Source: a virus (Duplodnaviria > Caudoviricetes). From it: a stretch of 55,586 bases of DNA. The stretch is taken from the IMG/VR virus record IMGVR_UViG_3300048838_000528, positions 1 through 55,586 of that record; one strand, written 5' to 3'. The stretch's first letter is position 1, and every line of letters begins with the position of its first letter. This document shows, piece by piece, positions 7,435-45,330 of the stretch. The translations under genes and the position numbers were made by a program. Below the pieces are notes generated by a model that was given only the letters and a program-made list of their open reading frames with translations, was not told the origin of the DNA and searched no databases.

Positions 7435-7644
7435 ATGAAGTATGAAGAATTATTACTCATGATTGAGGGATTACCTCATACTATGAAAGTGCCGTTAAGA
7501 CGAGCGATTAAATACGCCCAGAAGCAAGAGGAGTTCGTGGTATTACAAAGACGATGGATTGATACGGCTTATAGCCCAAATGAAAGGGCGATGATATGGA
7601 CTAAAATTGAAAAGAAAGAAAAAGAATTGGAGGAAATGAAATGA
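7435..7644 (+). CDS. hypothetical protein, EKELEEMK family
   Basis: AAGGAG RBS; C-terminus shared with 20902-21198. Confidence 0.75.
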   Translation: MKYEELLLMIEGLPHTMKVPLRRAIKYAQKQEEFVVLQRRWIDTAYSPNERAMIWTKIEKKEKELEEMK

Positions 7645-7964
7645 CACCTAAAGAAGCGTTTAAAGATTTATTTTTAGATGTATGGAAGCGTGATGAAGAA
7701 ACAAACAAAAAGCAAAGTATAGTGTTAAATGCCCTCACCGAACTTGAAGAACTTAAGCGTTATCCAACGAGTGAGGAAGTGTGCGAGGCGTTGAGTGAGT
7801 ATTATCATTATGAAGTTGAATATTCAAAGCGAGATATGACATTTGAAAGTGAATTGTCTTGGTATGCGTGTTTTAAAGATGGTGTAATAGACTTTGGCGG
7901 AGATAAGTTACCCCCTCACCTCATCACACTCATCGGACGATTTTACGAGGGGGTAGGGAAATGA
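7641..7964 (+). CDS. hypothetical protein, MTPKEAFK family
   Basis: N-terminus shared with 21446-21760. Confidence 0.75.
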   Translation: MTPKEAFKDLFLDVWKRDEETNKKQSIVLNALTELEELKRYPTSEEVCEALSEYYHYEVEYSKRDMTFESELSWYACFKDGVIDFGGDKLPPHLITLIGRFYEGVGK

Positions 7965-20905: not shown

Positions 20906-21198
20906 ATTATGAAGAAATAATTAAAAACGTAAAACAATTAAGCAATTTAGCAGAATGGTACGAAAGCGATGTCATTAGCGATGGATACGAAGAGGCTAAA
21001 AAGCATAGAGAAGACATGACACGGCGTGTTATTAAGTTTATTGAGAAAGAGCATGAGTTGTTGGGGTTGTATCAAAAAGCATCACATTATCAAATAGGTC
21101 ATAATTTAGGCTGTTTATCTGTCGATGATAAAAAAAAATGGATTGAAATTGAAAAACAAGTTGATGATTTAGAAAAAGAATTGGAGGAAATGAAATGA
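20902..21198 (+). CDS. hypothetical protein, EKELEEMK family
   Basis: shared C-terminus with 7435-7644. Confidence 0.75.
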   Translation: MNYEEIIKNVKQLSNLAEWYESDVISDGYEEAKKHREDMTRRVIKFIEKEHELLGLYQKASHYQIGHNLGCLSVDDKKKWIEIEKQVDDLEKELEEMK

Positions 21199-21449
21199 TT
21201 ACACATGAAGAAGTAAAACAAGAATTAAAAGAACAAACCGATTATACATTTATAAAATTGCCAAAAACTTATCAATACTTAAATCAACAAGAAAAGAAAG
21301 ACAAGTTGCTTGAGTTGTATCGTAAAGCAAAACAGCAAGTTTTAGATTATGTAGATACTCCAAACAAAACTCCCAAAGTATTACATTTATTGTTAGATAT
21401 TCATGAAACATTAGACGAGATTGAAGCACTTGAGGAGGAACTGAAATGA
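21195..21449 (+). CDS. hypothetical protein, related to 20902
   Basis: KLLELYRK...EIEALEEELK. Confidence 0.75.
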   Translation: MITHEEVKQELKEQTDYTFIKLPKTYQYLNQQEKKDKLLELYRKAKQQVLDYVDTPNKTPKVLHLLLDIHETLDEIEALEEELK

Positions 21450-21760
21450 CACCTAAAGAAGCCTTTAAAAAATTATATGAAAAAGTTGGTAACCAATATA
21501 TACCTTTGGGTTTTGTAGGAAAACCAAAAGGAACACGAGACGAACTATGTTTGAAAGTCGATAACGCCTTCACCGAACTTGAAGTACTTAAACTACAGAA
21601 AGAAAAACTTATCAAAACTATTAAAAGTTTGATAAGCAAGACCGAAGCGTGGGAAGAAAAAGAAAATAAAACTGATTTTGAAAAGGGTATAGCAAGGGGT
21701 TATTCAACCATGTTGGACCAATTGTTGGTTGGTATTTGTTTTAATGAGGAGGAAAAATAA
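21446..21760 (+). CDS. hypothetical protein, MTPKEAFK family
   Basis: MTPKEAFK...NAFTELE.LK shared with 7641. Confidence 0.75.
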   Translation: MTPKEAFKKLYEKVGNQYIPLGFVGKPKGTRDELCLKVDNAFTELEVLKLQKEKLIKTIKSLISKTEAWEEKENKTDFEKGIARGYSTMLDQLLVGICFNEEEK

Positions 21761-32934: not shown

Positions 32935-35900
32935 TTACACCGCCACCTTATCTACGGTAATCACACCGCTTGCTATCGTAAATATAATTTTATACACCGT
33001 ACCCGTCACACTGTCCGTGATAATTCTATCATCGTCATAATATGTGATGGTCGTTGTACCCTTGATGTACGTGCCTTGATAGATGTAGTTGAAATACACC
33101 CTATCGCCTGCCGTAAGTCCCGTATGCGTAAACGATAAGCCATCGCCTGCCACCGTGCTATCAGCCACATCTAACTGTGTCTGCGTGCCATCGTCAGCAA
33201 TTTTAACGATTTCTACGAGTTCACTGATGGGGTTAGTCACCGTGATGTTAGTCGTGTAAATGTCAGCGTCCTCCACCATGTCATCGATGTATAAAGTCAT
33301 GTTGGGTGAGCCCATGAGGAAGTTATCCACGTCTATTTCAGTTTCAATGGGGGTTGCGAGTTGATAAAGTATTTTAGTGCCTGCGAGTGCGGCTTGTGCT
33401 TCGGCTAAATCAGCGTATGTGCTTTTTGAAACAATCAAATACATATTAGTTGTGTCAGTAGCAAAATTATTTACATTTGTTAATGAACCAGTGAAAGATG
33501 GATTTATTTCTAAATTAAAATTATCTACAACATATTGTAAGTCTATACCTGCAGTTGACGCTTTTGCACCATTGTAATTGCTTAATGGAATAATTACTAA
33601 ATCTGTGTCAGCACCAGCAGTAAATAAACTACTCATATCCCCACTCACCAACGTATATTCTTGCACCCTTTTCACATGATAGAACTTGCCGTTTCGATAT
33701 TCGATGGTGTCTTTCACACCGTTAGGTACTCTATTCAAATTAGCGTTTGCTTGTAAGTATAACTCGCTATCTACATATGCCTCGTATGTGGTTGCGGTTG
33801 CGTTGGCTTCAACCATAAAATTCCATCCATCAACATCACTTAATGATATGACGTCATCATCACTTCTCTTTAATACTGCAACGGCATATAAATCTTTCGT
33901 GGGTGTAAATGAAGCAACGTTCCACCCTGTTGTTGTGTAAAATGTTGTATCATCAATATTTTCAACATAAGCAAATGAAAAATCTATGGTGGTATTGCTA
34001 CGGCTGTATGTATAAGTTACACCTTGCTTAACAGGTATCCGTTGGTTGGTTGATAATCTAACACTTAGAACACTACCATCCCAATCGCCTAAACGCCATT
34101 CTTCTCTTGATAAGTTCTTCCCAACCGCTCTCAATCTCTTATTGCCACTCACTGACTGTATATTGTCGTTTGGTAGTTCGCCACTCGTAACCCATGCGTC
34201 CATTTGCGTTTTAATGTTAGCGTCACTCATGAGGTCAAATGTGGTATTGAATAGGGGGGAGTATTGCTTGTTGGCGATTAGGGTTGAGATGTTGAAAGTG
34301 TAAATATAATCAACATCAATTTGTGTCCAATCACTCGATCGATTATCTTGAACGGTCGCATATTTGGTTGCTCCTTGTGTTAAAACACCTGTTATATGTT
34401 CATATTCTCCTGAGCCACTATGATACCCAACAGCTGAAGTTCCATCACCAACTACAATCTCATTTGTTCCACTTGTTACTTTAACTTTAAAATCCCAATA
34501 ATATTTATCTCCTTCTATGAGCGCACTACTATCTTCAATAAGGCGACCACTTGTAGCATTAGCAGTAAATGAATAAATGCCACCACTTACACTGCCTGTT
34601 GCGGTAATTAAACTCCACCCCGTCGTACCATCTTCAAAATCCCCATTCGTGACTAACTGTGGTGCGTCCAATATCATGCCTTCAACCTCAACACTTAACG
34701 GTGCGTTTGCCACGTCGCTATCGAAATGTATGATTGATGTGCCGTCCTCTTCGGCTGTGTCGCCTGACGTCTTGCGTAGGCTTTCCTCGATACGCTTGAT
34801 GGATAGGTCTTGACGGACGTCGCTTTCTTCGAGGGTGTCGATACGTGTTTCGTGGTCTGATAGCGTGTCGGCGTTTGCTTTAACCTGCGTATCCAACAAC
34901 TCGATATCTTGCTTGACATCATCGCTTGCGTCTAAATAATTTGTACCACTGTGTGATACGGGTACATCTTCGGCGTTCATCACGACATTATCATCCAACG
35001 TGTAACCGTTGACCGTAATCGTCTTATCCACCTTACCCGCCAACACCGTGACTAAATCTACGCCCTCTGGGTAGTTCTCAAATATCGCCAAGATTTCAGC
35101 AATCGTATTGACAACATCATCAGCGTCGCTGTCAAATAGTGCAACGAGCGTGTCTAAATCAACTTTATCTTGTGCTGACATCAAGCCTGCTAATGACTGT
35201 GTTGCGTTGCCGATAAACGACTTCATCTCCACTAACGTTAAGATATTTGATGTGGTATTGTCATAGAATGTAAGCGTGATAAGATTTGTTCCTGTACGAG
35301 CAATGCTCTTAATCATGTTAGCGTTCTCTAATGCTGTCGTTCTACCTCTATGCGTATCAGCGTTAACAATCGTTTCATAGGTTGCTGGAACTGTTGTGTC
35401 TTTGAATGTTTCAAGACCTGAAATGCTTAACTCAATAGGGTCAAGTCTATCATCAACTAACTTGGTTGTAGGGTATTTAACGTTATCAGGTGTACCCCAT
35501 GCTGTTACTTTATTTGACTTGTCCTCTTTATTGGTTTGTAAATCTAAGATGTCTTGTTCAATATCGTCAATCATACCAACAATTTCATCAACTGCTGTTT
35601 TTAAGGTTGTTGCAACCAAACCACTAATTGTTGGGTCGTAAGTGATGTCTTGTGAACCGTCAATAATGGATTGAATATCACATTCGGTTGTCCCAACTCT
35701 TTGCAATAAAGTTCCTTGACTATCGGCAAATTCAATATATTCGTTTCCATCCCAAATGTATTCTAAACCAATGTAAGCACTATCATCCACCGTTGTGCCA
35801 TCTTGAATAATATAAAATGTGCCACAAACGGGGGTAAATGCCAAACCACCATCGGTTAAGGATAACCAATCACTTGCTAACGGTGTTCCATCAATTATAT

Positions 35901-36657
35901 AGGCGTTTTCAACTTGCTTTTCACCTATAAGTGCTTGATTTGTTAAAGCAATATCGTTCACATCAGCAATGTATGCTAAAATATAACGGATATACTCTTC
36001 TGTGATTGAAACTGTGTGGGTTGGTCTTGGCAAGTTGCCTTTTTGTATTTGCATACCAACAATATTATATTGTTTGGTATCAACCATATTCACTTGAACC
36101 GTTGGTTCGTCAATCAAAGTCCATGTGTACGTTTCAAGTTCGCCATCGTAGATGATTGAATAAAAACCAAAACCGTTTAAACCTTCCGTTGTGTAAACAT
36201 ACGCTACCGAGTTCAAATCATAAAGTGTTTCGGTTGCAGGATGGTCGGTTTTTAAATTGGTGTACGTTGCAAATGCACCTAACAATCCATCGCCTGCGGT
36301 TTGAACAACCGTTGCTTGAACGCCTAATACCGAAGTACCGTTAGCGTTCCATTGCAAAACTTGTGGTGGAACTAAAAGTGAATATTTAGCAAACGTTCTT
36401 GCCAAAGCCTCACCTGTAATAACTTTTTGAACCGTACCACCGTAAAGCGTTGGAAAAAATACCGACGTTGGGTAACCTTTCCCATCGGCTTTAAAATTAA
36501 CCATGACAACGTTTGTTGAAACGCCATCTTCTAAATAAACATCTAATCGGTTTACGTTAGACGCAGGGTGAAAATTAGCCAAACCGTATGGGTCGTATTG
36601 CGTCCCATTTGTAGTGAAAAATACTTCACCGTAAGTCTGTCTTAAAGGGTCTGCCAT
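32935..36657 (-). CDS. tail fibre / receptor-binding protein
   Basis: 1240 aa; coiled-coil stalk, AGLMSAQDK fibre motif, LVTNGDFE..W carbohydrate-binding-like module, LYQLATP C-terminal motif. Confidence 0.82.
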   Translation of the reverse strand: MADPLRQTYGEVFFTTNGTQYDPYGLANFHPASNVNRLDVYLEDGVSTNVVMVNFKADGKGYPTSVFFPTLYGGTVQKVITGEALARTFAKYSLLVPPQVLQWNANGTSVLGVQATVVQTAGDGLLGAFATYTNLKTDHPATETLYDLNSVAYVYTTEGLNGFGFYSIIYDGELETYTWTLIDEPTVQVNMVDTKQYNIVGMQIQKGNLPRPTHTVSITEEYIRYILAYIADVNDIALTNQALIGEKQVENAYIIDGTPLASDWLSLTDGGLAFTPVCGTFYIIQDGTTVDDSAYIGLEYIWDGNEYIEFADSQGTLLQRVGTTECDIQSIIDGSQDITYDPTISGLVATTLKTAVDEIVGMIDDIEQDILDLQTNKEDKSNKVTAWGTPDNVKYPTTKLVDDRLDPIELSISGLETFKDTTVPATYETIVNADTHRGRTTALENANMIKSIARTGTNLITLTFYDNTTSNILTLVEMKSFIGNATQSLAGLMSAQDKVDLDTLVALFDSDADDVVNTIAEILAIFENYPEGVDLVTVLAGKVDKTITVNGYTLDDNVVMNAEDVPVSHSGTNYLDASDDVKQDIELLDTQVKANADTLSDHETRIDTLEESDVRQDLSIKRIEESLRKTSGDTAEEDGTSIIHFDSDVANAPLSVEVEGMILDAPQLVTNGDFEDGTTGWSLITATGSVSGGIYSFTANATSGRLIEDSSALIEGDKYYWDFKVKVTSGTNEIVVGDGTSAVGYHSGSGEYEHITGVLTQGATKYATVQDNRSSDWTQIDVDYIYTFNISTLIANKQYSPLFNTTFDLMSDANIKTQMDAWVTSGELPNDNIQSVSGNKRLRAVGKNLSREEWRLGDWDGSVLSVRLSTNQRIPVKQGVTYTYSRSNTTIDFSFAYVENIDDTTFYTTTGWNVASFTPTKDLYAVAVLKRSDDDVISLSDVDGWNFMVEANATATTYEAYVDSELYLQANANLNRVPNGVKDTIEYRNGKFYHVKRVQEYTLVSGDMSSLFTAGADTDLVIIPLSNYNGAKASTAGIDLQYVVDNFNLEINPSFTGSLTNVNNFATDTTNMYLIVSKSTYADLAEAQAALAGTKILYQLATPIETEIDVDNFLMGSPNMTLYIDDMVEDADIYTTNITVTNPISELVEIVKIADDGTQTQLDVADSTVAGDGLSFTHTGLTAGDRVYFNYIYQGTYIKGTTTITYYDDDRIITDSVTGTVYKIIFTIASGVITVDKVAV

Positions 36658-37010: not shown

Positions 37011-37391
37011 CTACGCAAAATTAAATGTTTCACTCGAAATGTAATAACTACCATCCGAAGTAGTATAACTGCCACTCACTGTAAAATATGCAATAACATT
37101 ACCCGTTGCCGAGTTTTCATAAGCAATACAAGAAAGTGTCGTGCCACTTGGAATGGCAAACATAATTGGTGTGCTTGAAGCACTGTTAGCCGATGTCAAT
37201 ATGCCACCTGAAGCCGTAGCCCATGACATTGTAACATATCTCGCCCCACTTGAAGTATACCCTGCATAATTTGCAGAGTAACCTGAAATTGCTGTGTCTA
37301 TAGTTGGCGTTGTTTTAAGTAAATATACTCTATCCAAATCGCCACCTAATAGGTTTAACATTCTATTCTTTGCTGAACTTGATAGTGCCAT
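37011..37391 (-). CDS. small virion/tail-associated protein
   Basis: MALS...NRML, FAIPSG; paralogous to 37395. Confidence 0.65.
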   Translation of the reverse strand: MALSSSAKNRMLNLLGGDLDRVYLLKTTPTIDTAISGYSANYAGYTSSGARYVTMSWATASGGILTSANSASSTPIMFAIPSGTTLSCIAYENSATGNVIAYFTVSGSYTTSDGSYYISSETFNFA

Positions 37392-37394
37392 AAT

Positions 37395-37715
37395 TTATCC
37401 CTCCAATGTCTTTCTAAATAGGTTGATGGTATACGTCCCATTTGATGTAAAGGTTTCATTTGTAACCTCTGCTGTTTCAAAAACATCAGATAATGTACCA
37501 TTATAAAGTGTGATATAGTCTACTGTTTTTCCTGATGGTACAGCAAACACCACGTTTTCAACTTCTGTTGAACCACCTGAAGCCTGACTAAAATAAACGG
37601 TTTCACTGTCTATCAATGTGTCTGCACTATCATATAGCCTCATGACAGTAGCCCCACCACTTCGATAAAATTCTAAATCTAACATTTTGTTAAATTCAAC
37701 ATTACTAATCGCCAT
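37395..37715 (-). CDS. small virion/tail-associated protein
   Basis: MAIS...NKML, FAVPSG, F.S.GTY.I; paralogous to 37011. Confidence 0.65.
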   Translation of the reverse strand: MAISNVEFNKMLDLEFYRSGGATVMRLYDSADTLIDSETVYFSQASGGSTEVENVVFAVPSGKTVDYITLYNGTLSDVFETAEVTNETFTSNGTYTINLFRKTLEG

Positions 37716-37737
37716 AATTTTATTCTCCTTTTTGCAT

Positions 37738-40700
37738 TTATTCTACTTTATAGTAGTAATATACTGGGCTACATATATAGCCACTATTTCTCGTCACTCT
37801 AACAATCGTACCCAATCCGTAGTCATTTGCTGAATAGTTTGCTTTAAGCCATGATAGGATGGTTGTAAATGTTGCGCATGTCGTACCACTCGATGTATAA
37901 ACTAAATCGTATGAGTAACCTGTTTCTAATGTGTACTTCCATTCAAGCGTGTCATATGTTGTTGTTTCGTCGATGTATCTCACGTTTGTATTGTTGTTGA
38001 TGTTGCCAATGTTGGTTGTATGGGCTACGGTTTCTAAATCAATAATGCTTTCCCAATAATCATCCCCATACTCAAACGTTTCGGTTTCCGTAATTACTCT
38101 CGAGCCTGATATTCTATTTATATTGCCTATCGTGGTTAAGTGATTGATGGTTTCCGTGTCTATCACATCTTGCCAGTAGTCATCACCGTATTCAAAGTAT
38201 TCACTTTCTGTTATAACTCTTTCTTGTGGTGCTAAAACATTAATATTACCAACTTGCGTTGTATGTTCAATTGTTTGTGGGTCTATAATGCTTTCCCAGA
38301 AGTCATCGCCATACAAGAAATCTTGTGTTTCTATAATATGTCTAATTTGTGGTGATAGGGTATTCATGTTTCCAACTTGCGTTGTATGTTCCAAAGTATC
38401 CGTTTCTATGAAAATTCTAACTTGGTCGTAAATAATACTTCGATTACCGATTGTTGTTTGGTTTGGATAGAAGTGCAATCTCGTTGCATTAAACCCATTA
38501 TAATCTTGATTACAAGCCATGTAAAGGTTTCCTAAACTGTCACCAATAGCCCAAGATGTAAGAAATGATGTATTTATGGTTGAACTAAATCTAAATTGCC
38601 CATTTAAATATGAAGCATTTACACCATTTTCAATTTTAATAGGCGTCCCATATCCTGTTTTTACTTTATAAATACTGAACTTATCATATTGCGTACCGTT
38701 TGTATAGGGATAAAACCACATTTCCGTTCCAACGACTTCATCAAATTCCGTTTCGGGATTATTAACCAAAAAGTTATTAGTGAAAAATGATATGCCTAAA
38801 ACATATTCTTTATAATCAAATGGCATGACACTTGTTTGAATAGCAACTTTTATACTTTGCGATTTATCTTTCTTGCCAAACATAAGTGGATTGTAACTTG
38901 TATGCGTTGTAACTACGCTACCACTTCTATGTGTTACAAAATTACCAATTTCAAACTCATTTTGGTCGTGTATTCTTGTTAGTGGATAATTTTGTAGCCT
39001 TTCTGTTTCACTATAATTATCATCGTGTAATAAATCATCAATAAGAAATCTTGTTGCAAAAGCAAACCATAACTTCGTAAACTCACCATTTAAATCCGTG
39101 TATCTAACTGCTTTATTATAATAAAGTGTTGATGAACCAGTTTCTGCTTGAACAGCGTCACCTGCTACTTGGTTTCCACTAAAACCAAATACAAATGAAA
39201 ATCCATGTTTCCCACCAAACGAACGAACGGGATTTAAAATAAAATATTTGTAGTCGTAATCGTCAAGATAAACTTTTTCAAAACCATCCGTTTTAATGTA
39301 AGCCGTTGTAACCTTTGTTTTACCACCTGTAACCGTATCATTCCAATCATTCATCAAAGTACCAAAAATCAATTTCAATGCGTTATCTGTAATCATCGTT
39401 GTTTCTTCTACAAATGAAATGTTTGGTTTTGTAATAAAAATATTTTCGTTAAATATTTCTTGTCTTTCAAAAACTTGATTTGATGATGGAATTTCTTGCC
39501 AACGGTATTCTTGGTCTACTTTAGTCCATAAACTCAAACGGTTATGGTCTTTAGTTGCTACATAACTCGCCTTAACAAACTCGTTATGAAACTCAAACTT
39601 TTCTTCTACAATTATGTAATCGTTTTCATCTTTCATCCCCCACCTTAATAAATTGGAATAATCCTCATATATTTTTTGGAATTGAATAGATGGAACGCCT
39701 GCACGTTGTGTATCGCCATGTGCTCTCAAACTTGCAAATGATATATTCATCGCCTTATCGTTTTGGTTTAGGCGTCCTTCACTGTAATATAAACTATTTG
39801 ATATGTTTTCACGGTATGTCTGAAATGGAAAACTCTCAAATGTAATATATTTTAATTGAAATTGCAAATCTCTAAACTCGGCTTGCGTTGGCATATCATA
39901 AGATATATTATAACCCGAATAAACAACGGTATCTTCGCCTAAAATTGTATATCTTGGCGTTATGCCATGCCGTGTAATATATTCATTCAATGCTTCATAA
40001 ATTGTACCATACACAAGATTTGTTTGTGTAACTTCACCTTGCACTGCACTCAAATCTATGAACTTTGTGCCTTGTTGCCAATAAAGATTTGAAACGGCAT
40101 TTTCACGTAGCCCAACATTTTCATCAAACATTCTTGCGTACTCAATTGTTGGGAAATTAACCGTTTTTAATTTTAATAACCATTCTTCACGGTTTATAAA
40201 TCTTGGTGTTAAATCTAATACAAAATCATTTATTTCTTCGGGGTCTGTATCGCCAAGTGGTATTGCACGTTCTATTACTATGCTATCTATAAAAGCGTAA
40301 AATGATGTTGGCATATACATTTCTGCTTCAAGTTGTAATCCAAAATCAGTATCCAAAATCTGAACTTTAGCAGAACGAACTGTTTTGTAAAGATTTTCGG
40401 CAGGTGATGTAACCGTTTCTTCTTCAAAAGAAGTTGGTAATACACGTTCACCCCAAACAATACCTTGATTGAATAGGTTTACTGCTTCTTGGCTTGAACC
40501 ATAAGCAATTAAATCTTCTAAATCAAAACTTCCTGTTATCTTATTATATTCATCCATAGAAAGCATATCAATATCTTCACTGTTGTAATAAAATCTGCTG
40601 ATAGCATTTACGTATGAAAATATCGTATTTAAAATTTGTCTCATGGTTGCCTTTTGCAAAAACATTTGAGGCATTTCCACACTTGCTAAATAATCTTCTA

Positions 40701-41547
40701 TTTCGGTGTCAATATTAAATAATCTCGTATCATCATGGTATATTTTGCTTTCAAAAGGTTTGCTATCACGAATAATATTGATTGCGTCTAAAACGCTTAA
40801 ACCACTTCTTGCAATCGCCGTTACATAAAATCTTTTATCTATTGTATCACCCAAAGTGACGTGATTAAAATAAATGTCGATTGTATGTTCTCCAATATCA
40901 TCAAAATCAAACGTGTAATCGCCTGACGTTAAATTGTGTGCCGTTTCACTATCAACTTGAATGTAAACATCTCGTTCTGAAAAATAAGATAGATTAGTGC
41001 CTGCACTTGATGTGACTTGTATGCACTTTCCAACTTGACTAATCGTAATTGTTTCGCCTGTGTAATATTGTGTTCTTATATCCACATAAGGCATAAAGTA
41101 TTCCAAGTCGATTGAATAATCTGTGGATGGTGCAGTATGTGTACTTACAAGATTGTAATTATTCATAACCCTAAATGGTGCAGGATTATTATTCTTTAAT
41201 GGTTTAGTATAAGTAAACGTGTGGTAAAGGTAACTATCGTACTTGCCCGAATATTCCATGACACGTAAATTGTGTTTCCATTCGCCATACTTTGAACCTT
41301 CTTCAACTTCATCACTTAAAATAATATAGGTTGCTTCCACTTGATTTCCTGCGTAATCTTCACTTAATATTTCAAGTAAACCACGCATTGGATACTCATA
41401 ATTTCTTATCGTAAATGGGAGGTGTAAGCCTGCTTCGTCTAAAGGTTCTTCAAACTTACCGATAGCACTCGCACCGATTGAAACGTTTTCGAGTTCTACG
41501 CCATTCAACATAAACTTATTCTTAAAATATTTTCTATATGTTGGCAT
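37738..41547 (-). CDS. large tail-tip/hub protein with C-terminal 40-aa repeats
   Basis: 1269 aa in tail position; repeats YGDD(F/Y)W...HTT..GN. Confidence 0.65.
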   Translation of the reverse strand: MPTYRKYFKNKFMLNGVELENVSIGASAIGKFEEPLDEAGLHLPFTIRNYEYPMRGLLEILSEDYAGNQVEATYIILSDEVEEGSKYGEWKHNLRVMEYSGKYDSYLYHTFTYTKPLKNNNPAPFRVMNNYNLVSTHTAPSTDYSIDLEYFMPYVDIRTQYYTGETITISQVGKCIQVTSSAGTNLSYFSERDVYIQVDSETAHNLTSGDYTFDFDDIGEHTIDIYFNHVTLGDTIDKRFYVTAIARSGLSVLDAINIIRDSKPFESKIYHDDTRLFNIDTEIEDYLASVEMPQMFLQKATMRQILNTIFSYVNAISRFYYNSEDIDMLSMDEYNKITGSFDLEDLIAYGSSQEAVNLFNQGIVWGERVLPTSFEEETVTSPAENLYKTVRSAKVQILDTDFGLQLEAEMYMPTSFYAFIDSIVIERAIPLGDTDPEEINDFVLDLTPRFINREEWLLKLKTVNFPTIEYARMFDENVGLRENAVSNLYWQQGTKFIDLSAVQGEVTQTNLVYGTIYEALNEYITRHGITPRYTILGEDTVVYSGYNISYDMPTQAEFRDLQFQLKYITFESFPFQTYRENISNSLYYSEGRLNQNDKAMNISFASLRAHGDTQRAGVPSIQFQKIYEDYSNLLRWGMKDENDYIIVEEKFEFHNEFVKASYVATKDHNRLSLWTKVDQEYRWQEIPSSNQVFERQEIFNENIFITKPNISFVEETTMITDNALKLIFGTLMNDWNDTVTGGKTKVTTAYIKTDGFEKVYLDDYDYKYFILNPVRSFGGKHGFSFVFGFSGNQVAGDAVQAETGSSTLYYNKAVRYTDLNGEFTKLWFAFATRFLIDDLLHDDNYSETERLQNYPLTRIHDQNEFEIGNFVTHRSGSVVTTHTSYNPLMFGKKDKSQSIKVAIQTSVMPFDYKEYVLGISFFTNNFLVNNPETEFDEVVGTEMWFYPYTNGTQYDKFSIYKVKTGYGTPIKIENGVNASYLNGQFRFSSTINTSFLTSWAIGDSLGNLYMACNQDYNGFNATRLHFYPNQTTIGNRSIIYDQVRIFIETDTLEHTTQVGNMNTLSPQIRHIIETQDFLYGDDFWESIIDPQTIEHTTQVGNINVLAPQERVITESEYFEYGDDYWQDVIDTETINHLTTIGNINRISGSRVITETETFEYGDDYWESIIDLETVAHTTNIGNINNNTNVRYIDETTTYDTLEWKYTLETGYSYDLVYTSSGTTCATFTTILSWLKANYSANDYGLGTIVRVTRNSGYICSPVYYYYKVE

Positions 41548-41572
41548 TGTGCTATCTCCTTTTCTTCAATTT

Positions 41573-42052
41573 CTAACGCTTTACCCCATATTGATTTCCA
41601 ACAATAGCCTTGCCTGTCAATTCACGGTAATATTGGTTTTGTTCATTTTGTCTATTGGTAATCTTTTGTTGAAGAAAACCATAGGCGTAAACATCATCCA
41701 CAAAGTATCTTACAGGGTTTAAAATATAATTTTTTGTTCTTTTAATATTACCTGTTGTTAAAATATCACCCGTAGAGGCTTGCCGTATATCAAGGTACAT
41801 ATCCAAAGCCTTGTTTGCAAGTGTTACGCCTGCAAATGCAACAGCACCTGCAAAACCCATACGTTTAAGACTTCCTGAACCGTATGAATTAGCATTAAAA
41901 GCCTGTGGAACTTTTGAAACCACTTTAGATAACTTAAACTTTGAGGTATTGTTTTGTCTTATTTGCTGTACGCTTCTTTTAGCAGATGTTTTTAAATTGC
42001 TTTGCCCACCACTACCATTTAGGTTAATATTAATATTATGATTGGTTGCCAT
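41573..42052 (-). CDS. basic 159-aa protein in tape-measure position
   Basis: basic N-terminus, GFAGAVAFAGVTLA hydrophobic stretch. Confidence 0.5.
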   Translation of the reverse strand: MATNHNININLNGSGGQSNLKTSAKRSVQQIRQNNTSKFKLSKVVSKVPQAFNANSYGSGSLKRMGFAGAVAFAGVTLANKALDMYLDIRQASTGDILTTGNIKRTKNYILNPVRYFVDDVYAYGFLQQKITNRQNEQNQYYRELTGKAIVGNQYGVKR

Positions 42053-42061
42053 CTATTCCAC

Positions 42062-43123
42062 CTACTTTGCAGACACGCTAAAGCCAACCGAGAATACAAT
42101 AGGTTCACCATATACTATCTCACTTGGTGACGCTTCGCCTATTACAAGGCGAATATTCGATTTTTGCATATCTGAAACGTATTGGTAATCACCGTTTGCG
42201 TCCAACTCTTTAAACTTCATATTTAGTACGTAAATATGTGGTTTATCTAAAACTTCAAAAGTTTCTTTGAATAATTTTCTAATAATAGGTTTTGTGCTGT
42301 CAAACAAAAAAGTGAATACAACTGCAAAACCCCTTGACTTTACATAATTATGAACTTGCTTATACTTTTCGTTTGTTGTTGAAAATGAACGTAACGTTTG
42401 AAAACTTTCCAAATCTTGTGTCGTACCAAAATCTGCAATTAGTGGAATAACGTCTTCAAAATCTTCACTTGTTAAAGTTATTTCTGCGTCGCTTTCATCA
42501 TATTCAACCCGTGCAAATTCCCATTCAAATTGATTGCCAAGTTCTACGTTTTTTGAAACAGTAAGTGTTGTGGTTAGAGAATACTCCATGTATCTTCTAC
42601 CCATGATTTCATTTATATCACCAAATACAATACTGTCAGCCGTAGTGGCTATTCTTAAATGGTCTGTAATTCTTGAACCACTTTCATTTGTTAAATCTAT
42701 TTCACTGATTTCTAAAGTATCTAAATTACCAATTAAATTATCACGGACTTCTTCTATTGCAAGCCGAATGATTTCACTTATTGGGTTGTCTACAAATACC
42801 AAGAAAGATAAAGTAATATCATAAGAAACCAATTGAACATTTGGAAGTGGCGTGTATTCACCACTTGAAATGCCACCACTCATTACAACAAAGTTCTTTT
42901 TGTCATTTTGATAGGTTTCTTCATTGAAAACATAACTCTCATCAAAATGTCCGTTTTCGTTTGCATTTTGTGGTGCGTAAATATATAAGTGCACTTGGTC
43001 TGCGTCATCAGCATACGGTTCGTAAGCACCCATCTTAAATGGTATTCCAAAACTGTTATCATTAAACTTATCTGCTAAATACTTCAATAAGTCCGTTTGT
43101 TTAATATTTGTCAAAGTGCTCAC
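42062..43123 (-). CDS. tail protein (possible terminator/tube fusion)
   Basis: 353 aa, beta-rich, follows the neck genes. Confidence 0.5.
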   Translation of the reverse strand: MSTLTNIKQTDLLKYLADKFNDNSFGIPFKMGAYEPYADDADQVHLYIYAPQNANENGHFDESYVFNEETYQNDKKNFVVMSGGISSGEYTPLPNVQLVSYDITLSFLVFVDNPISEIIRLAIEEVRDNLIGNLDTLEISEIDLTNESGSRITDHLRIATTADSIVFGDINEIMGRRYMEYSLTTTLTVSKNVELGNQFEWEFARVEYDESDAEITLTSEDFEDVIPLIADFGTTQDLESFQTLRSFSTTNEKYKQVHNYVKSRGFAVVFTFLFDSTKPIIRKLFKETFEVLDKPHIYVLNMKFKELDANGDYQYVSDMQKSNIRLVIGEASPSEIVYGEPIVFSVGFSVSAK

Positions 43124-43735
43124 CTACTTTCTTAATGCTAATGCCATCAAACTATTTCTTTCTTCGTAATTTGGGGTATCCATATACCACATATTTGACT
43201 TTTGATTTAACTTCTTGTTATATAAATATCTTGAACCTTGTTGTTTACCTTGCATTTTGGCTTGATTACTTCCAACAACACCACGATAGCGTATTTGAGA
43301 TAATTTTCTTCTGTCATCAGCCGTGATTTGTTTGTCACTCCAACCTAATGATTGCATGATTTTACGTTCATAAAACATAGGTCCTTGTTTGCTGATTGAT
43401 AAAGTTGCAGAAGGAGGATTTGTAAGAAAACCTGTTTTACCTGTTTTGAAATAGGTAATCAATTCTTGTATCATATTACCAACAGTCAAATTTGAAATAA
43501 AACCTTTATGTTTTTTAACAGGTCCCATACCTTCTTCAAGATAATGCAAATAAATTGCATTTAATGCGTTGTAAATAAATTGTTTTCTCGTTGGACTATT
43601 TTTGCTCATTGTAATTGCACGTCTCAAATTACCCGTATCATACGGTGCGTATGCAATCGCAATGTGCCATAGCCAATTTCCAAGTTCGGGTGTCATGGAC
43701 GTTACCTTGCCATTTGTATTGATGTTAAAATCCAT
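43124..43735 (-). CDS. neck/tail-completion protein (HK97 gp10-like)
   Basis: APYDTGNLRRAI and Y..YLEEG motifs. Confidence 0.75.
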   Translation of the reverse strand: MDFNINTNGKVTSMTPELGNWLWHIAIAYAPYDTGNLRRAITMSKNSPTRKQFIYNALNAIYLHYLEEGMGPVKKHKGFISNLTVGNMIQELITYFKTGKTGFLTNPPSATLSISKQGPMFYERKIMQSLGWSDKQITADDRRKLSQIRYRGVVGSNQAKMQGKQQGSRYLYNKKLNQKSNMWYMDTPNYEERNSLMALALRK

Positions 43736-43751
43736 ACCATCACAACCCCTC

Positions 43752-44273
43752 TTAAATAACGGCTAATAATTTAGGTGCAAATCTTTCAAAACCTTTTGGT
43801 GTATTCATTGCCAAAAACTTGTTAGGCGTAGTACCCGATGTAATAATTGTAAGAACTTTCAAAATAATATATTCACGGTCGCCAACCATAATTTTGCCAC
43901 CTGCTTTAAAATCAACATGCGTAGCACTTGTTTCAATACGCCATTTTTGTGATTGACCTAACTGTCTATCCAAATACTCAAATACTTGGAAGTCTAAACC
44001 ACCTTTAGTGTAAACATCAGACTTACCATCACGAAAGTAAAACACCGTTCCCGTGTCTTCATACATTGTCAAACGGTTTCCATCACTATCTTGAAAATTG
44101 TCTACAAAATCGGTTTGAACTTTTGCTTTTAACTGTGCAAGGTTCATTTCTTGATATTTTGGAAACTTTGCTTTTAAATCTAATTCTTGTTTAGGTGCAA
44201 AATATCTACCCTTAAATCCTTGAAGCATAATGGATTGTCCTTGATTAACCCATGTAATGTTAGGCATTACCAC
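43752..44273 (-). CDS. head-closure-like protein
   Basis: position; DFKAGGKIMVGDREYII pattern. Confidence 0.5.
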   Translation of the reverse strand: MVMPNITWVNQGQSIMLQGFKGRYFAPKQELDLKAKFPKYQEMNLAQLKAKVQTDFVDNFQDSDGNRLTMYEDTGTVFYFRDGKSDVYTKGGLDFQVFEYLDRQLGQSQKWRIETSATHVDFKAGGKIMVGDREYIILKVLTIITSGTTPNKFLAMNTPKGFERFAPKLLAVI

Positions 44274-44770
44274 TCACTCCCTGCCGTACTTGCAACCACA
44301 TCAAAATCGTATTTGAAGTAACGTGTTTGCAAACCATTATTTTTCATAATTTCATTTGCAATGGGTGATAAAAACTGTTCGGGTTCTATGCGTAAGGTTT
44401 TCATTTCATGCAAGTTAATACCCGTTTGGTATGCTGTCATGAAACCACCACCACTATGGTTATAGTGAACCGTATCCATAATAAGTGATTTTAGGGCTTT
44501 ACGGGCTTTTGCCGAGTGTGATAAGTAATAAGCCATACGTTCTCTATATTTTTCGTCCTTAAAGGAATAAATACGTGTGTAGATAACGTTAGAAATCAAC
44601 TTTAAATAAAACTCTGCATTCTCTGGTGTCTGCCAAAGTTCAATCAAATCAATACCTGTCAATCCAAGTGAAGCGTCTAACTTCATGTAGTATTGGCGTG
44701 TTTCGTAATCGTATGCTAAAACTTCATCATCATAAGGTGCTGATAAAAAGTCTGTTGTTGGGATAGCCAT
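44267..44770 (-). CDS. head-tail adaptor candidate
   Basis: position; likely start MAIPTTD within track ORF 44267..44821. Confidence 0.55.
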   Translation of the reverse strand: MAIPTTDFLSAPYDDEVLAYDYETRQYYMKLDASLGLTGIDLIELWQTPENAEFYLKLISNVIYTRIYSFKDEKYRERMAYYLSHSAKARKALKSLIMDTVHYNHSGGGFMTAYQTGINLHEMKTLRIEPEQFLSPIANEIMKNNGLQTRYFKYDFDVVASTAGSEW

Positions 44771-45330
44771 TATAAACACCCCCATATATTCATTTGCCCA
44801 TAGGGTTTCCATAAGAACCAAAATATTTTTCCATATTTGGTTGTTTTAAAATCTTCAAAAACTTGACCGCCAACTTCCATTTCAAACTTATGGTCTTTAT
44901 CTTTTTCATAAGCGTTCATGGATACACGGTTTGCTTCATCTTTTAATAAGTCAATATTCAATTCTAAATAATGTGCAATATAAAGTGAAATCATTTGTTT
45001 CCAAATATCTTCCTGCCCAACCAAAGTCCATCTAACACGCAACTTGGCTAAAATGGTAAGTGCATAGAAAAGTGGGTACAACGAACTATCCGTACCCTCA
45101 TTCAAATATTCTGCAAATGCTTTCCCCCATACCAAGAAATCGTCTAAATCGTAATCTGGTTCATCTTCCAAATCATCTTCATAGGTTGGAAATAAAGGTG
45201 ATACGATTTCCACAGCGAGTGTGTTCATGTAGCCAAATGGGTTGAATAGGTCTAAATACAATTCGTTTGTCGATTGGCTATACGATACGTATGGGTTGTC
45301 TTGTAAAGGTATAAACGACATAATATGCAC
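44770..45330 (-). CDS. DUF4054-like head-tail connector
   Basis: LYIAHYL and TKYGKIFW motifs. Confidence 0.75.
   Translation of the reverse strand: MHIMSFIPLQDNPYVSYSQSTNELYLDLFNPFGYMNTLAVEIVSPLFPTYEDDLEDEPDYDLDDFLVWGKAFAEYLNEGTDSSLYPLFYALTILAKLRVRWTLVGQEDIWKQMISLYIAHYLELNIDLLKDEANRVSMNAYEKDKDHKFEMEVGGQVFEDFKTTKYGKIFWFLWKPYGQMNIWGCL

Follow-up and report, generated by a model that had tools for sequence, protein, structure and literature searches.

Introduction

The tails of siphoviruses such as 80alpha, SPP1 and lambda are built from a separate terminator and tube protein, together with a frameshifted G/GT chaperone, a Dit protein, a long tape measure and a Tal/hub protein, and a gp10/gpZ-like gene lies just upstream. 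Several related machines vary this plan. The tubes of T5 (pb6) and P74-26 carry two tube-type domains in one chain; three chains set these domains next to each other in a ring, and polymerisation gives long tails that have separate terminators. The gene transfer agent RcGTA has a short tape measure and several tube rings, its stopper, terminator, tube and tape measure being encoded by separate genes. In type VI secretion, a cellular sheath-driven machine, the hexameric tube-fold ring of Hcp sits directly on the gp27-like VgrG trimer with no Dit between them, and Hcp polymerises. Tailed phages are sorted as long contractile, long flexible and short, and how one type converts into another is unclear. 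In this study, the tail genes of a tailed virus (Duplodnaviria; Caudoviricetes) were analysed in the IMG/VR record IMGVR_UViG_3300048838_000528, whose entire 55586 bp are hereafter called the window. The element in question is a 353-amino-acid (aa) protein of its late operon that combines a terminator-like with a tube-like domain, and that is followed by a 159-aa basic protein and a 1269-aa hub protein.

Compared with 80alpha, SPP1 and lambda, the window has the same terminator, tube and Tal/hub folds in the same relative order, also with a putative gp10/gpZ-like gene just upstream, but its terminator and tube folds are not in separate proteins, and a single 159-aa protein occupies the place that usually holds three to four genes, among them those for the chaperone, the tape measure and Dit. 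Two tube-fold domains in one chain are shared by the 353-aa protein and the T5/DT57C pb6 and P74-26 tubes, its best full-length matches in Foldseek, from which it differs in a terminator-like N-terminal domain and a poor full-length fit. A shortened siphovirus-type tail is likewise known from RcGTA, and neck and tail chains of gene transfer agents ranked among the best matches of both 353-aa domains (6tba_4A, Z 10.1; 6toa_G, Z 7.8). The tail proposed below would resemble type VI secretion in its hexameric tube-fold ring set directly on a gp27-like trimer, and VgrG-type chains match the 1269-aa hub (Z 8.6–6.8), but the proposed ring would be capped and joined to a capsid. Among podophages, the tail knobs of phi29 and Streptococcus C1 are described as hexameric rings with the tube fold of long-tailed phages (according to a review, PMC11476376). 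Unlike the window, these podophages rely on a lower collar and knob of the phi29 type, and they lack a trimeric hub of the Tal kind as well as a terminator-like domain and a gp10/gpZ protein. Among the listed fold matches of the 353-aa model there was no chain of a knob or collar, which does not by itself exclude a relationship.

Results

The 353-aa protein combines a terminator-like and a tube-like domain

A word-indexed search recovered 39 homologues of the 353-aa protein among 1383 candidates; they are 195–510 aa long and 30–94% identical, and none of the 39 bears an annotation or a Pfam domain. The AlphaFold2 model built on a 40-row alignment (mean predicted local distance difference test score, pLDDT, 72.6; predicted template modelling score, pTM, 0.60) consisted of two beta-sandwich-plus-helix units, with residues 33–75 unmodelled. 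When the model was compared with the PDB by Foldseek, the top matches were the tail tube of P74-26 (E 4.3e-5), a neck chain of phiCD508 and the tail tube of DT57C (E 5e-4), followed by dozens of tube, terminator and Hcp chains at a probability of 1.00. The whole-length fit to the tandem tubes of P74-26 and DT57C was poor, with template modelling (TM) scores of 0.24–0.29 and root-mean-square deviation (rmsd) values between 21 and 22 Å.

Taken by domain, the two halves of the model had different neighbours. In a wide VIA search, the leading matches of residues 5–192 were neck chain M of NF5 (Z 10.3), a neck chain of P74-26 and neck chain D of SaPI1 (both 10.2), T5 p142 and the Mu terminator (both 9.7), lambda gpU (8.1) and T4 gp15 (7.8), while those of residues 193–353 were the Sf11 tail (10.1), 80alpha (8.8), the major tail protein of YSD1 (8.7) and the tubes of monocin (8.1) and SPP1 (7.9). 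In a second-look VIA search, 34 of the 50 best rows fell on residues 1–194 and 16 on residues 144–353, and none spanned both domains. The N-domain rows were led by T5 p142 (Z 10.5, rmsd 3.0 over 144 aligned residues), the SaPI1/80alpha neck chain D (9mu3_D, 10.2), the Mu terminator (9.5–9.7), the T1 stopper-terminator (9.2), lambda gpU (8.3–8.5) and T4 gp15 (7.9); those of the C-domain were led by Sf11 tail chain B (Z 10.1, rmsd 3.2 over 136 aligned residues), 80alpha 6v8i (8.8), lambda gpV (8.0–8.2), the monocin tube (8.1) and the SPP1 tube (7.8). An earlier note on this DNA, made from the sequence alone, had predicted a fusion of terminator and tube folds, and these results agree with it, as residues 5–192 best match terminators and residues 193–353 tube proteins.

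At the sequence level, no curated terminator family matched the 353-aa protein (0 in Pfam at E ≤ 0.01 and 0 in PHROGs, the Pfam scan covering all window open reading frames (ORFs) of at least 150 aa and the PHROGs scan 30 ORFs), and PDB sequence-profile searches with the 353-aa protein and with the 203-aa, 159-aa and 1269-aa families returned nothing relevant. The tube-like domain occurs only in fusion with a terminator-like domain, both in the window protein and in nearly all 39 homologues. Where the two domains join, the longer homologues carry an insertion of about 140–160 residues. The 195-aa homologue P0036, which is 58% identical to residues 6–185 only, comprises the N-domain alone and ends near the domain boundary.

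Look-alikes with both domains were found in BFVD, where four uncultured-phage proteins (A0A8S5M1V8, A0A8S5QY21, A0A8S5N043 and A0A2Z4GUI0) matched the two domains together at TM 0.45–0.73, 10–12% identity and E 4e-13 to 9e-10; judged from these, the terminator-tube fusion design may be wider than the window lineage. No published description of a terminator-tube fusion, or of a tail of such design, was found in searches of a limited full-text library.

The 1269-aa protein begins with a hub/Tal fold

For residues 1–700 of the 1269-aa protein, 23 homologues were found among 8000 candidates scored, and conservation extended to about residue 1034. In Foldseek, the AlphaFold2 model of residues 1–1040 (mean pLDDT 71.8) best matched a 953-aa chain of the HFTV1 tail (9h4p_BD, E 4.1e-4), followed by lambda gpV. 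The wide VIA search placed residues 1–670 among the hub/Tal chains of at least 20 phages, pyocins, contractile injection systems and type VI secretion (Z 10.6–6.8). The individual scores were 10.6 for HFTV1 9h4p_BD, 10.3 for the cyanophage A-1(L) baseplate (8kea_A), 10.1 for the NF5 tail-associated lysin, 9.6 for the pyocin R2 hub, 9.4 for the E217 baseplate, 8.9 for diffocin, 8.8 for Neisseria 3d37, 8.6 for VgrS, 7.9 for Mu gp44, 7.6 for 80alpha 6v8i_AE, 7.4 for Listeria gp18 and 6.9 for the T5 tip (7zhj_b). A hub/Tal fold had been expected at the N-terminus of this protein, and residues 1–670 indeed match gp27-type hub/Tal proteins at Z 10.6–7.6. Residues 1–100 taken alone match tube proteins (Z 7.2–5.8), and an Ig/PKD-like insertion lies at about residues 148–247.

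At the end of the gene (window 37738–38430, hub residues ~1040–1269), an acidic/aromatic motif recurs in three to four tandem repeats, each about 44 aa long, which precede a Cys-containing end domain.

Tail genes of the window and their order in relatives

After the neck genes, the late operon encodes proteins of 203, 353, 159, 1269, 106, 126 and 1240 aa, and then three small proteins. The gaps on the two sides of the 159-aa gene measure 9 and 25 nt, therefore no chaperone or ruler gene can fit there. No tube, sheath, chaperone, tape-measure or lysin family was found by Pfam or PHROGs in the ORFs scanned, and six-frame searches with PF10145 (tape measure) and PF04984 (sheath) returned nothing in the window or in its closed relative. 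The gene inventory from which the earlier note had started was thus reproduced, with the ORFs in place on the minus strand and no tube, sheath, chaperone or long tape-measure gene found among them.

When 50,697 phage records were searched by tblastn, neither the 1269-aa nor the 353-aa protein had a match, and a single-sequence scan of viral contigs found no relative. Alignment-based scans recovered one viral contig, four contigs of one metagenome-assembled genome (MAG; five places) and 11 metagenome loci, one of the 11 being that viral contig. Gene order was compared in 14 distinct loci, 4 of which end too early for the downstream genes to be judged. An ORF of 155–164 aa directly follows the fusion gene in all ten loci with downstream DNA, and an ORF of 1027–1416 aa comes next in all six that reach far enough, with open-ended ORFs at this place in two more; an ORF of 184–208 aa directly precedes the fusion gene in 11 of 11 loci with upstream DNA. 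Four of the small downstream ORFs were confirmed by alignment, and the rest were judged by length and position.

One relative (G002; 49857 bp) has direct terminal repeats and 100% completeness, and encodes a fusion protein 39% identical to that of the window. Its late operon has the same order as that of the window. In the other arm lie genes for MBL, SbcC-like, methylase and pentapeptide-repeat proteins, and no tail family was found there. The gene order is therefore kept in every informative locus, this closed genome included. The concern that the window might lack a segment with tail genes found no sign in its favour, as the closed relative carries the same gene set and the CheckV completeness of the window is 100%.

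Two observations on the relatives stand apart from these comparisons. The closed genome encodes a 223-aa pentapeptide-repeat protein (L024:242-913; PF00805, E 7.8e-48), and none was noticed in the window. In the MAG G001 (2.5 Mb), five relatives of the fusion gene lie on contigs C279, C84, C67, C238 and C75; they look like phage strains binned together, not prophages.

The 159-aa basic protein as a candidate lumen protein

The 159-aa protein has a pI of 10.2 and one Gly/Ala-rich, moderately hydrophobic stretch (residues 65–83; mean Kyte-Doolittle value 1.32). Its orthologues at four related loci are 28–38% identical to it; the N-terminus is strand-like in all of them, and the C-terminal half is conserved. 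When 1.84 billion representative proteins were searched with the profile of this family, 66 matches were obtained, 65 of them short (30–198 aa, most 135–198 aa). The single long match (P0124), an RTX-repeat protein aligning to the Gly-rich middle, was rejected as an artefact. In the Atlas look-up all features scored ≤0.89, under the threshold of 0.9, and two tape-measure fragment clusters at 0.80–0.81 were at noise level.

In 80alpha, one tail completion protein is described as joining the N-terminal strands of three copies of the tape measure in a beta-sheet (PMC11661146). An ESMFold2 prediction for the corresponding complex of one 203-aa and three 159-aa chains gave weak support, with a median ipSAE of 0.43 against 0.01 for the best of three controls, a contact agreement of at least 36% and a partner pLDDT of about 31. 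In the calibration set, 58 of 80 solved complexes passed the mark, as did 2 of 110 mismatched pairs; scores of ≤0.60 comprised only 7 of the 80 solved complexes and both passing mismatches, so that a pass at the 0.43 level is more often wrong than right unless the complex was already likely beforehand. As for the suggestion that this protein is a vestigial tape measure, gene position, the strand-like N-terminal motif and the weak complex prediction are consistent with it, whereas homology to tape measures did not appear. We propose the 159-aa protein as a putative lumen protein that would stand in for the tape measure by position only.

Head, neck and tail-tip genes of the late operon

Table 1. 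Genes and domains of the late operon of the window, with the basis of each assignment.
Feature	Position	Strand	Basis or remark
240-aa protein, small-terminase candidate		minus	by position
700-aa large terminase		minus	weak Terminase_6N match
611-aa portal		minus	Phage_portal_3/DUF1073, PF06381, E 1.3e-39
380-aa DUF2213 protein		minus	E 1e-36
190-aa protein, no assigned family		minus	between DUF2213 gene and capsid gene
404-aa major capsid protein		minus	Major_capside/DUF2184, PF09950, E 3.4e-16
84-aa ORF		minus	between capsid gene and 186-aa gene
186-aa head-tail adaptor candidate (DUF4054-like)	44770..45330	minus	PF13262 E 0.0037, below cut-off; PHROG 302 virion structural protein E 3.4e-5
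184-aa neck protein, family not assigned	44267..44821	minus	position in operon
173-aa neck protein, stopper candidate	43752..44273	minus	by position only
203-aa tail completion candidate (HK97 gp10 / lambda gpZ / SPP1 gp16.1 type)	43124..43735	minus	PHROG 5
353-aa gene	42062..43123	minus	
353-aa N-domain, residues 1-192, tail-terminator-like fold	42548..43123	minus	AlphaFold2 model and fold searches
353-aa C-domain, residues 193-353 and stop codon, tail-tube-like fold	42062..42547	minus	AlphaFold2 model and fold searches
159-aa basic protein, tail-lumen candidate	41573..42052	minus	by position
1269-aa gene	37738..41547	minus	
1269-aa residues 1-670, gp27-type baseplate hub / Tal fold	39538..41547	minus	AlphaFold2 model and fold searches
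1269-aa residues 671-1269, beta-rich domains, then repeats, Cys-containing end domain	37738..39537	minus	alignment and translation
106-aa small tail-tip protein	37395..37715	minus	position; paralogue of 126-aa protein
126-aa small tail-tip protein	37011..37391	minus	position; paralogue of 106-aa protein
1240-aa fibre / receptor-binding candidate with coiled-coil stretches	32935..36657	minus	by position after hub

The 203-aa protein directly upstream of the fusion gene matches PHROG 5 ('tail completion or Neck1') over residues 30–80 at E 6.4e-5. Its family comprises 50 homologues among 102 candidates, and PF04883 (HK97-gp10_like) weakly matches 24 of the 50 (best E 0.0015), the window copy itself being without a match. 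At window 43121–43126 the TAG stop of the 203-aa gene is followed, in frame, by the GTG start of the 353-aa gene, and read-through would join the two proteins; since two related loci (L002 and L006) have different frames at this junction, the arrangement is probably a coincidence.

Among the neck proteins, the weak DUF4054 match of the 186-aa protein recurs in its orthologues at the same two loci. The TTG start listed for the 184-aa gene overlaps the upstream gene, and the true start probably lies later. Relatives have an ORF of 179–241 aa in the position of the 184-aa gene and one of 172–176 aa in that of the 173-aa gene. Neither of these two proteins has a Pfam or PHROG match, Pfam at E ≤ 1 giving chance-level matches only, with orthologues included, and the 173-aa protein had no usable Atlas match.

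The closest cultured relatives of the capsid protein were ten Vibrio phage records (25% identity over 67% of the protein). One of these records was opened, and it is annotated with a tail sheath and with baseplate hub, spike and wedge proteins, which accords with the expectation that this head type goes with long tails. The putative gp10/gpZ-type protein of the neck points the same way.

At the tail tip, the 106-aa and 126-aa proteins are 27% identical to each other (BLASTP, E 1e-6) and had no family match; the pair recurs in locus L006 as ORFs of 108 and 126 aa. The 1240-aa protein gave weak matches only, to the needle-knob coiled coil PF16532 (E 0.0077) and to PHROG 1193 (E 2.5e-4).

Genome layout, host and lysis

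The window is classed as 'linear' in IMG/VR, and neither terminal or long internal repeats nor tRNA genes were found in it. Its GC content is about 27–41%. Two gene arms meet head-on near 31.4 kb. The plus-strand arm (about 0.5–31.4 kb) holds the early and replication genes, with methylase, YopX, Phg_2220_C, RtcB, SbcC/SbcD-like, GT2, sigma factor, RecT-like, MBL and SSB genes; the late operon, read on the minus strand, extends from 53.1 to 31.4 kb with no break between the terminase and the lysis region. Genes are preceded by Shine-Dalgarno sites (GGAGG type). A 43-nt block occurs three times (7629–7671, 21183–21225 and 21434–21476), each time spanning the ribosome-binding site and first codons of a small plus-strand gene, which suggests a small paralogous gene family.

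The 68 listed ORFs end in TAA (38), TGA (19) or TAG (11). The standard genetic code applies because TGA serves as a stop, and for the same reason the host does not use genetic code 4. The sole host lead is a MAG labelled Erysipelotrichaceae with five related contigs, in which three penicillin-binding protein (PBP) transpeptidase genes scored above the cut-off; those contigs showed no host flanks in the parts read, and their link to this MAG may reflect binning only. The lysis region (30.4–32.7 kb) encodes membrane-type proteins only, and no endolysin family was found among the scanned ORFs. A tail suited to a host with no wall to cross, as the earlier note had proposed, was set aside as unsupported in view of the TGA stops and the PBP genes of the MAG, though no lysin family was found and the host link of the MAG is itself weak.

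Discussion

Proposed tail architecture

What the data show of this locus is its gene content, a gene order kept in relatives, and folds of siphovirus- or myovirus-type tail parts. We estimate a probability of about 55% that these parts have been cut down to about one self-capped layer. A hexamer of the 353-aa protein would give two stacked rings from one gene. The tube-fold ring of C-domains would rest on the pseudo-sixfold top of the 1269-aa hub/Tal trimer without an intervening Dit, in the manner of Hcp on VgrG, and the terminator-fold ring of N-domains would present the head-joining surface to the neck, made of the DUF4054-like adaptor and the 184-aa and 173-aa proteins. With every tube domain bearing its own cap, the first hub-bound ring would also end the tube. 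If the cap is fused to the tube subunit in this way, then the phage can do without a G/GT chaperone, without a long ruler and without any free tube protein.

Three copies of the 159-aa protein would probably occupy the short lumen and plug it, and a single 203-aa completion protein would hold their N-terminal strands as in 80alpha. At about 4 nm per ring and 1.5 Å per helical residue, two rings and the hub cavity would measure about 15–20 nm, which a 159-residue protein could span. This protein would exit ahead of the DNA, and its Gly/Ala-rich hydrophobic stretch may aid the passage of DNA across the membrane. The 1240-aa fibre and the 106-aa and 126-aa proteins would bind the host, and the tail would probably assemble separately and be attached to the head afterwards, unlike classical podovirus tails. 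We infer from the locus as a whole the stoichiometry, the stacked geometry, the number of rings, the role of the 159-aa protein and the separate assembly of tail and head.

Several points weigh against a single self-capped layer. Terminator and tube proteins share one fold, so the labels of the two 353-aa domains rest on rank order, and these labels are drawn from Z scores of 8–10.5 when models without a true match typically reach 7–8. The models of the 353-aa and 1269-aa proteins have a mean pLDDT of only 72–73, and the best solved whole-length Foldseek matches of the 353-aa protein, the P74-26 and DT57C tubes, are tubes that polymerise. The short homologue P0036 may be a split gene or a truncation, and a natural split would allow a free tube domain in some relatives. 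As for the 159-aa protein, no sequence link of its family to tape measures was found in the profile search of 1.84 billion representatives or in Pfam, its models are of low confidence (pLDDT 0.57 in the Atlas and about 31 in the complex prediction), and its conserved C-terminal half contains Pro and Gly, unlike a plain helical ruler.

Alternative readings

One alternative is a short tube of several layers, in which 353-aa hexamers would be stacked two or three deep and the 159-aa protein would act as a true, very short ruler. A terminator-like ring could accept the next tube ring, both domains having the same fold; moreover, the small protein keeps to 155–164 aa in ten of ten loci while the fusion protein spans 310–510 aa, as expected of a ruler, and 159 residues at 1.5 Å each would reach at most about 24 nm. 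However, the N-domain ranked closer to terminators than to tubes in both VIA searches, and the 159-aa protein is not predicted as a confident long helix; we regard such stacking as unlikely. The preference of the N-domain for terminators speaks equally against a tandem tube of the T5 pb6 or P74-26 kind, whose two domains would lie side by side, three subunits to a pseudo-hexameric ring, and polymerise into a long tail with no recognisable ruler. That reading would explain why P74-26 (E 4.3e-5) and DT57C (E 5e-4) are the top solved full-length matches in Foldseek and why the whole-length matches in BFVD bear automatic 'Siphoviridae sp.' labels. Yet the full-length fits are poor (TM 0.24–0.29, rmsd 21–22 Å), both tubes fall outside the 50 best second-look rows by Z, and two complete genomes would be left with no terminator, ruler or chaperone at all; a tandem tube is accordingly very improbable.

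The architecture could also be as proposed with a different part for the 159-aa protein, either a non-virion tail assembly chaperone or an unrelated ejection or plug protein. Its gene lies where chaperone genes sit, it has no tape-measure homology, and its models are of low confidence. Tail assembly chaperones are typically acidic, with a frameshifted long form, whereas the 159-aa protein has a pI of 10.2 and ends 25 nt before the hub gene, which leaves no space for an extension. With the complex prediction, weak as it is, favouring contact with the completion protein (0.43 against 0.01 for the best control), another role for the protein seems rather unlikely. That tail genes are missing from the record, or that tail parts are borrowed from a helper phage, is scarcely credible given the CheckV estimate, the closed relative with the same gene set, the unbroken late operon and the presence of the window's own hub and fibre genes, even though the record is linear with no end repeats and a precedent exists in Acinetobacter phage Phanie, for which chimeric virions of a small podophage with the myovirus tail of its helper have been reported (cited in the review PMC11476376). 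An ordinary podovirus nozzle, adaptor or knob was considered and set aside. No podovirus nozzle protein, the match that the earlier note had named as counting against it, appeared among the listed fold matches of the 353-aa and 1269-aa models, nor did any other chain of the classical tails of T7 (gp11/gp12), P22 (gp4/gp10) or phi29 (gp11/gp9), an absence from those lists that amounts to no exclusion.

Significance

On this in silico reading, what is new is the terminator-tube fusion together with the loss of a free tube, chaperone, Dit and long ruler; the parts themselves belong to the known tail kit of siphoviruses and myoviruses. The self-capped tail might be a distinct and non-degenerate design, a pre-assembled siphovirus-type tail that terminates itself by cap-tube fusion within a podovirus-looking virion and is intermediate between long and short tails, in which case the BFVD look-alikes would mark it as widespread and of early or multiple origin; we hold this view tentatively, at somewhat less than even odds.

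The genome offers a testable genetic route between the types of tail, in which fusing terminator and tube should collapse a long tail to a single capped ring, with the Tal hub and the completion protein retained along with a small protein of the lumen. The locus suggests one way in which short-tailed phages can arise from long-tailed ones. If electron microscopy bears the proposed tail out, truncation of a siphovirus or myovirus tail can give rise to podovirus morphology, and this tail would be a minimal natural model of how tails are initiated and terminated and how DNA is gated. A caveat would then be needed wherever morphotype is called from a genome by its tape-measure or sheath gene.

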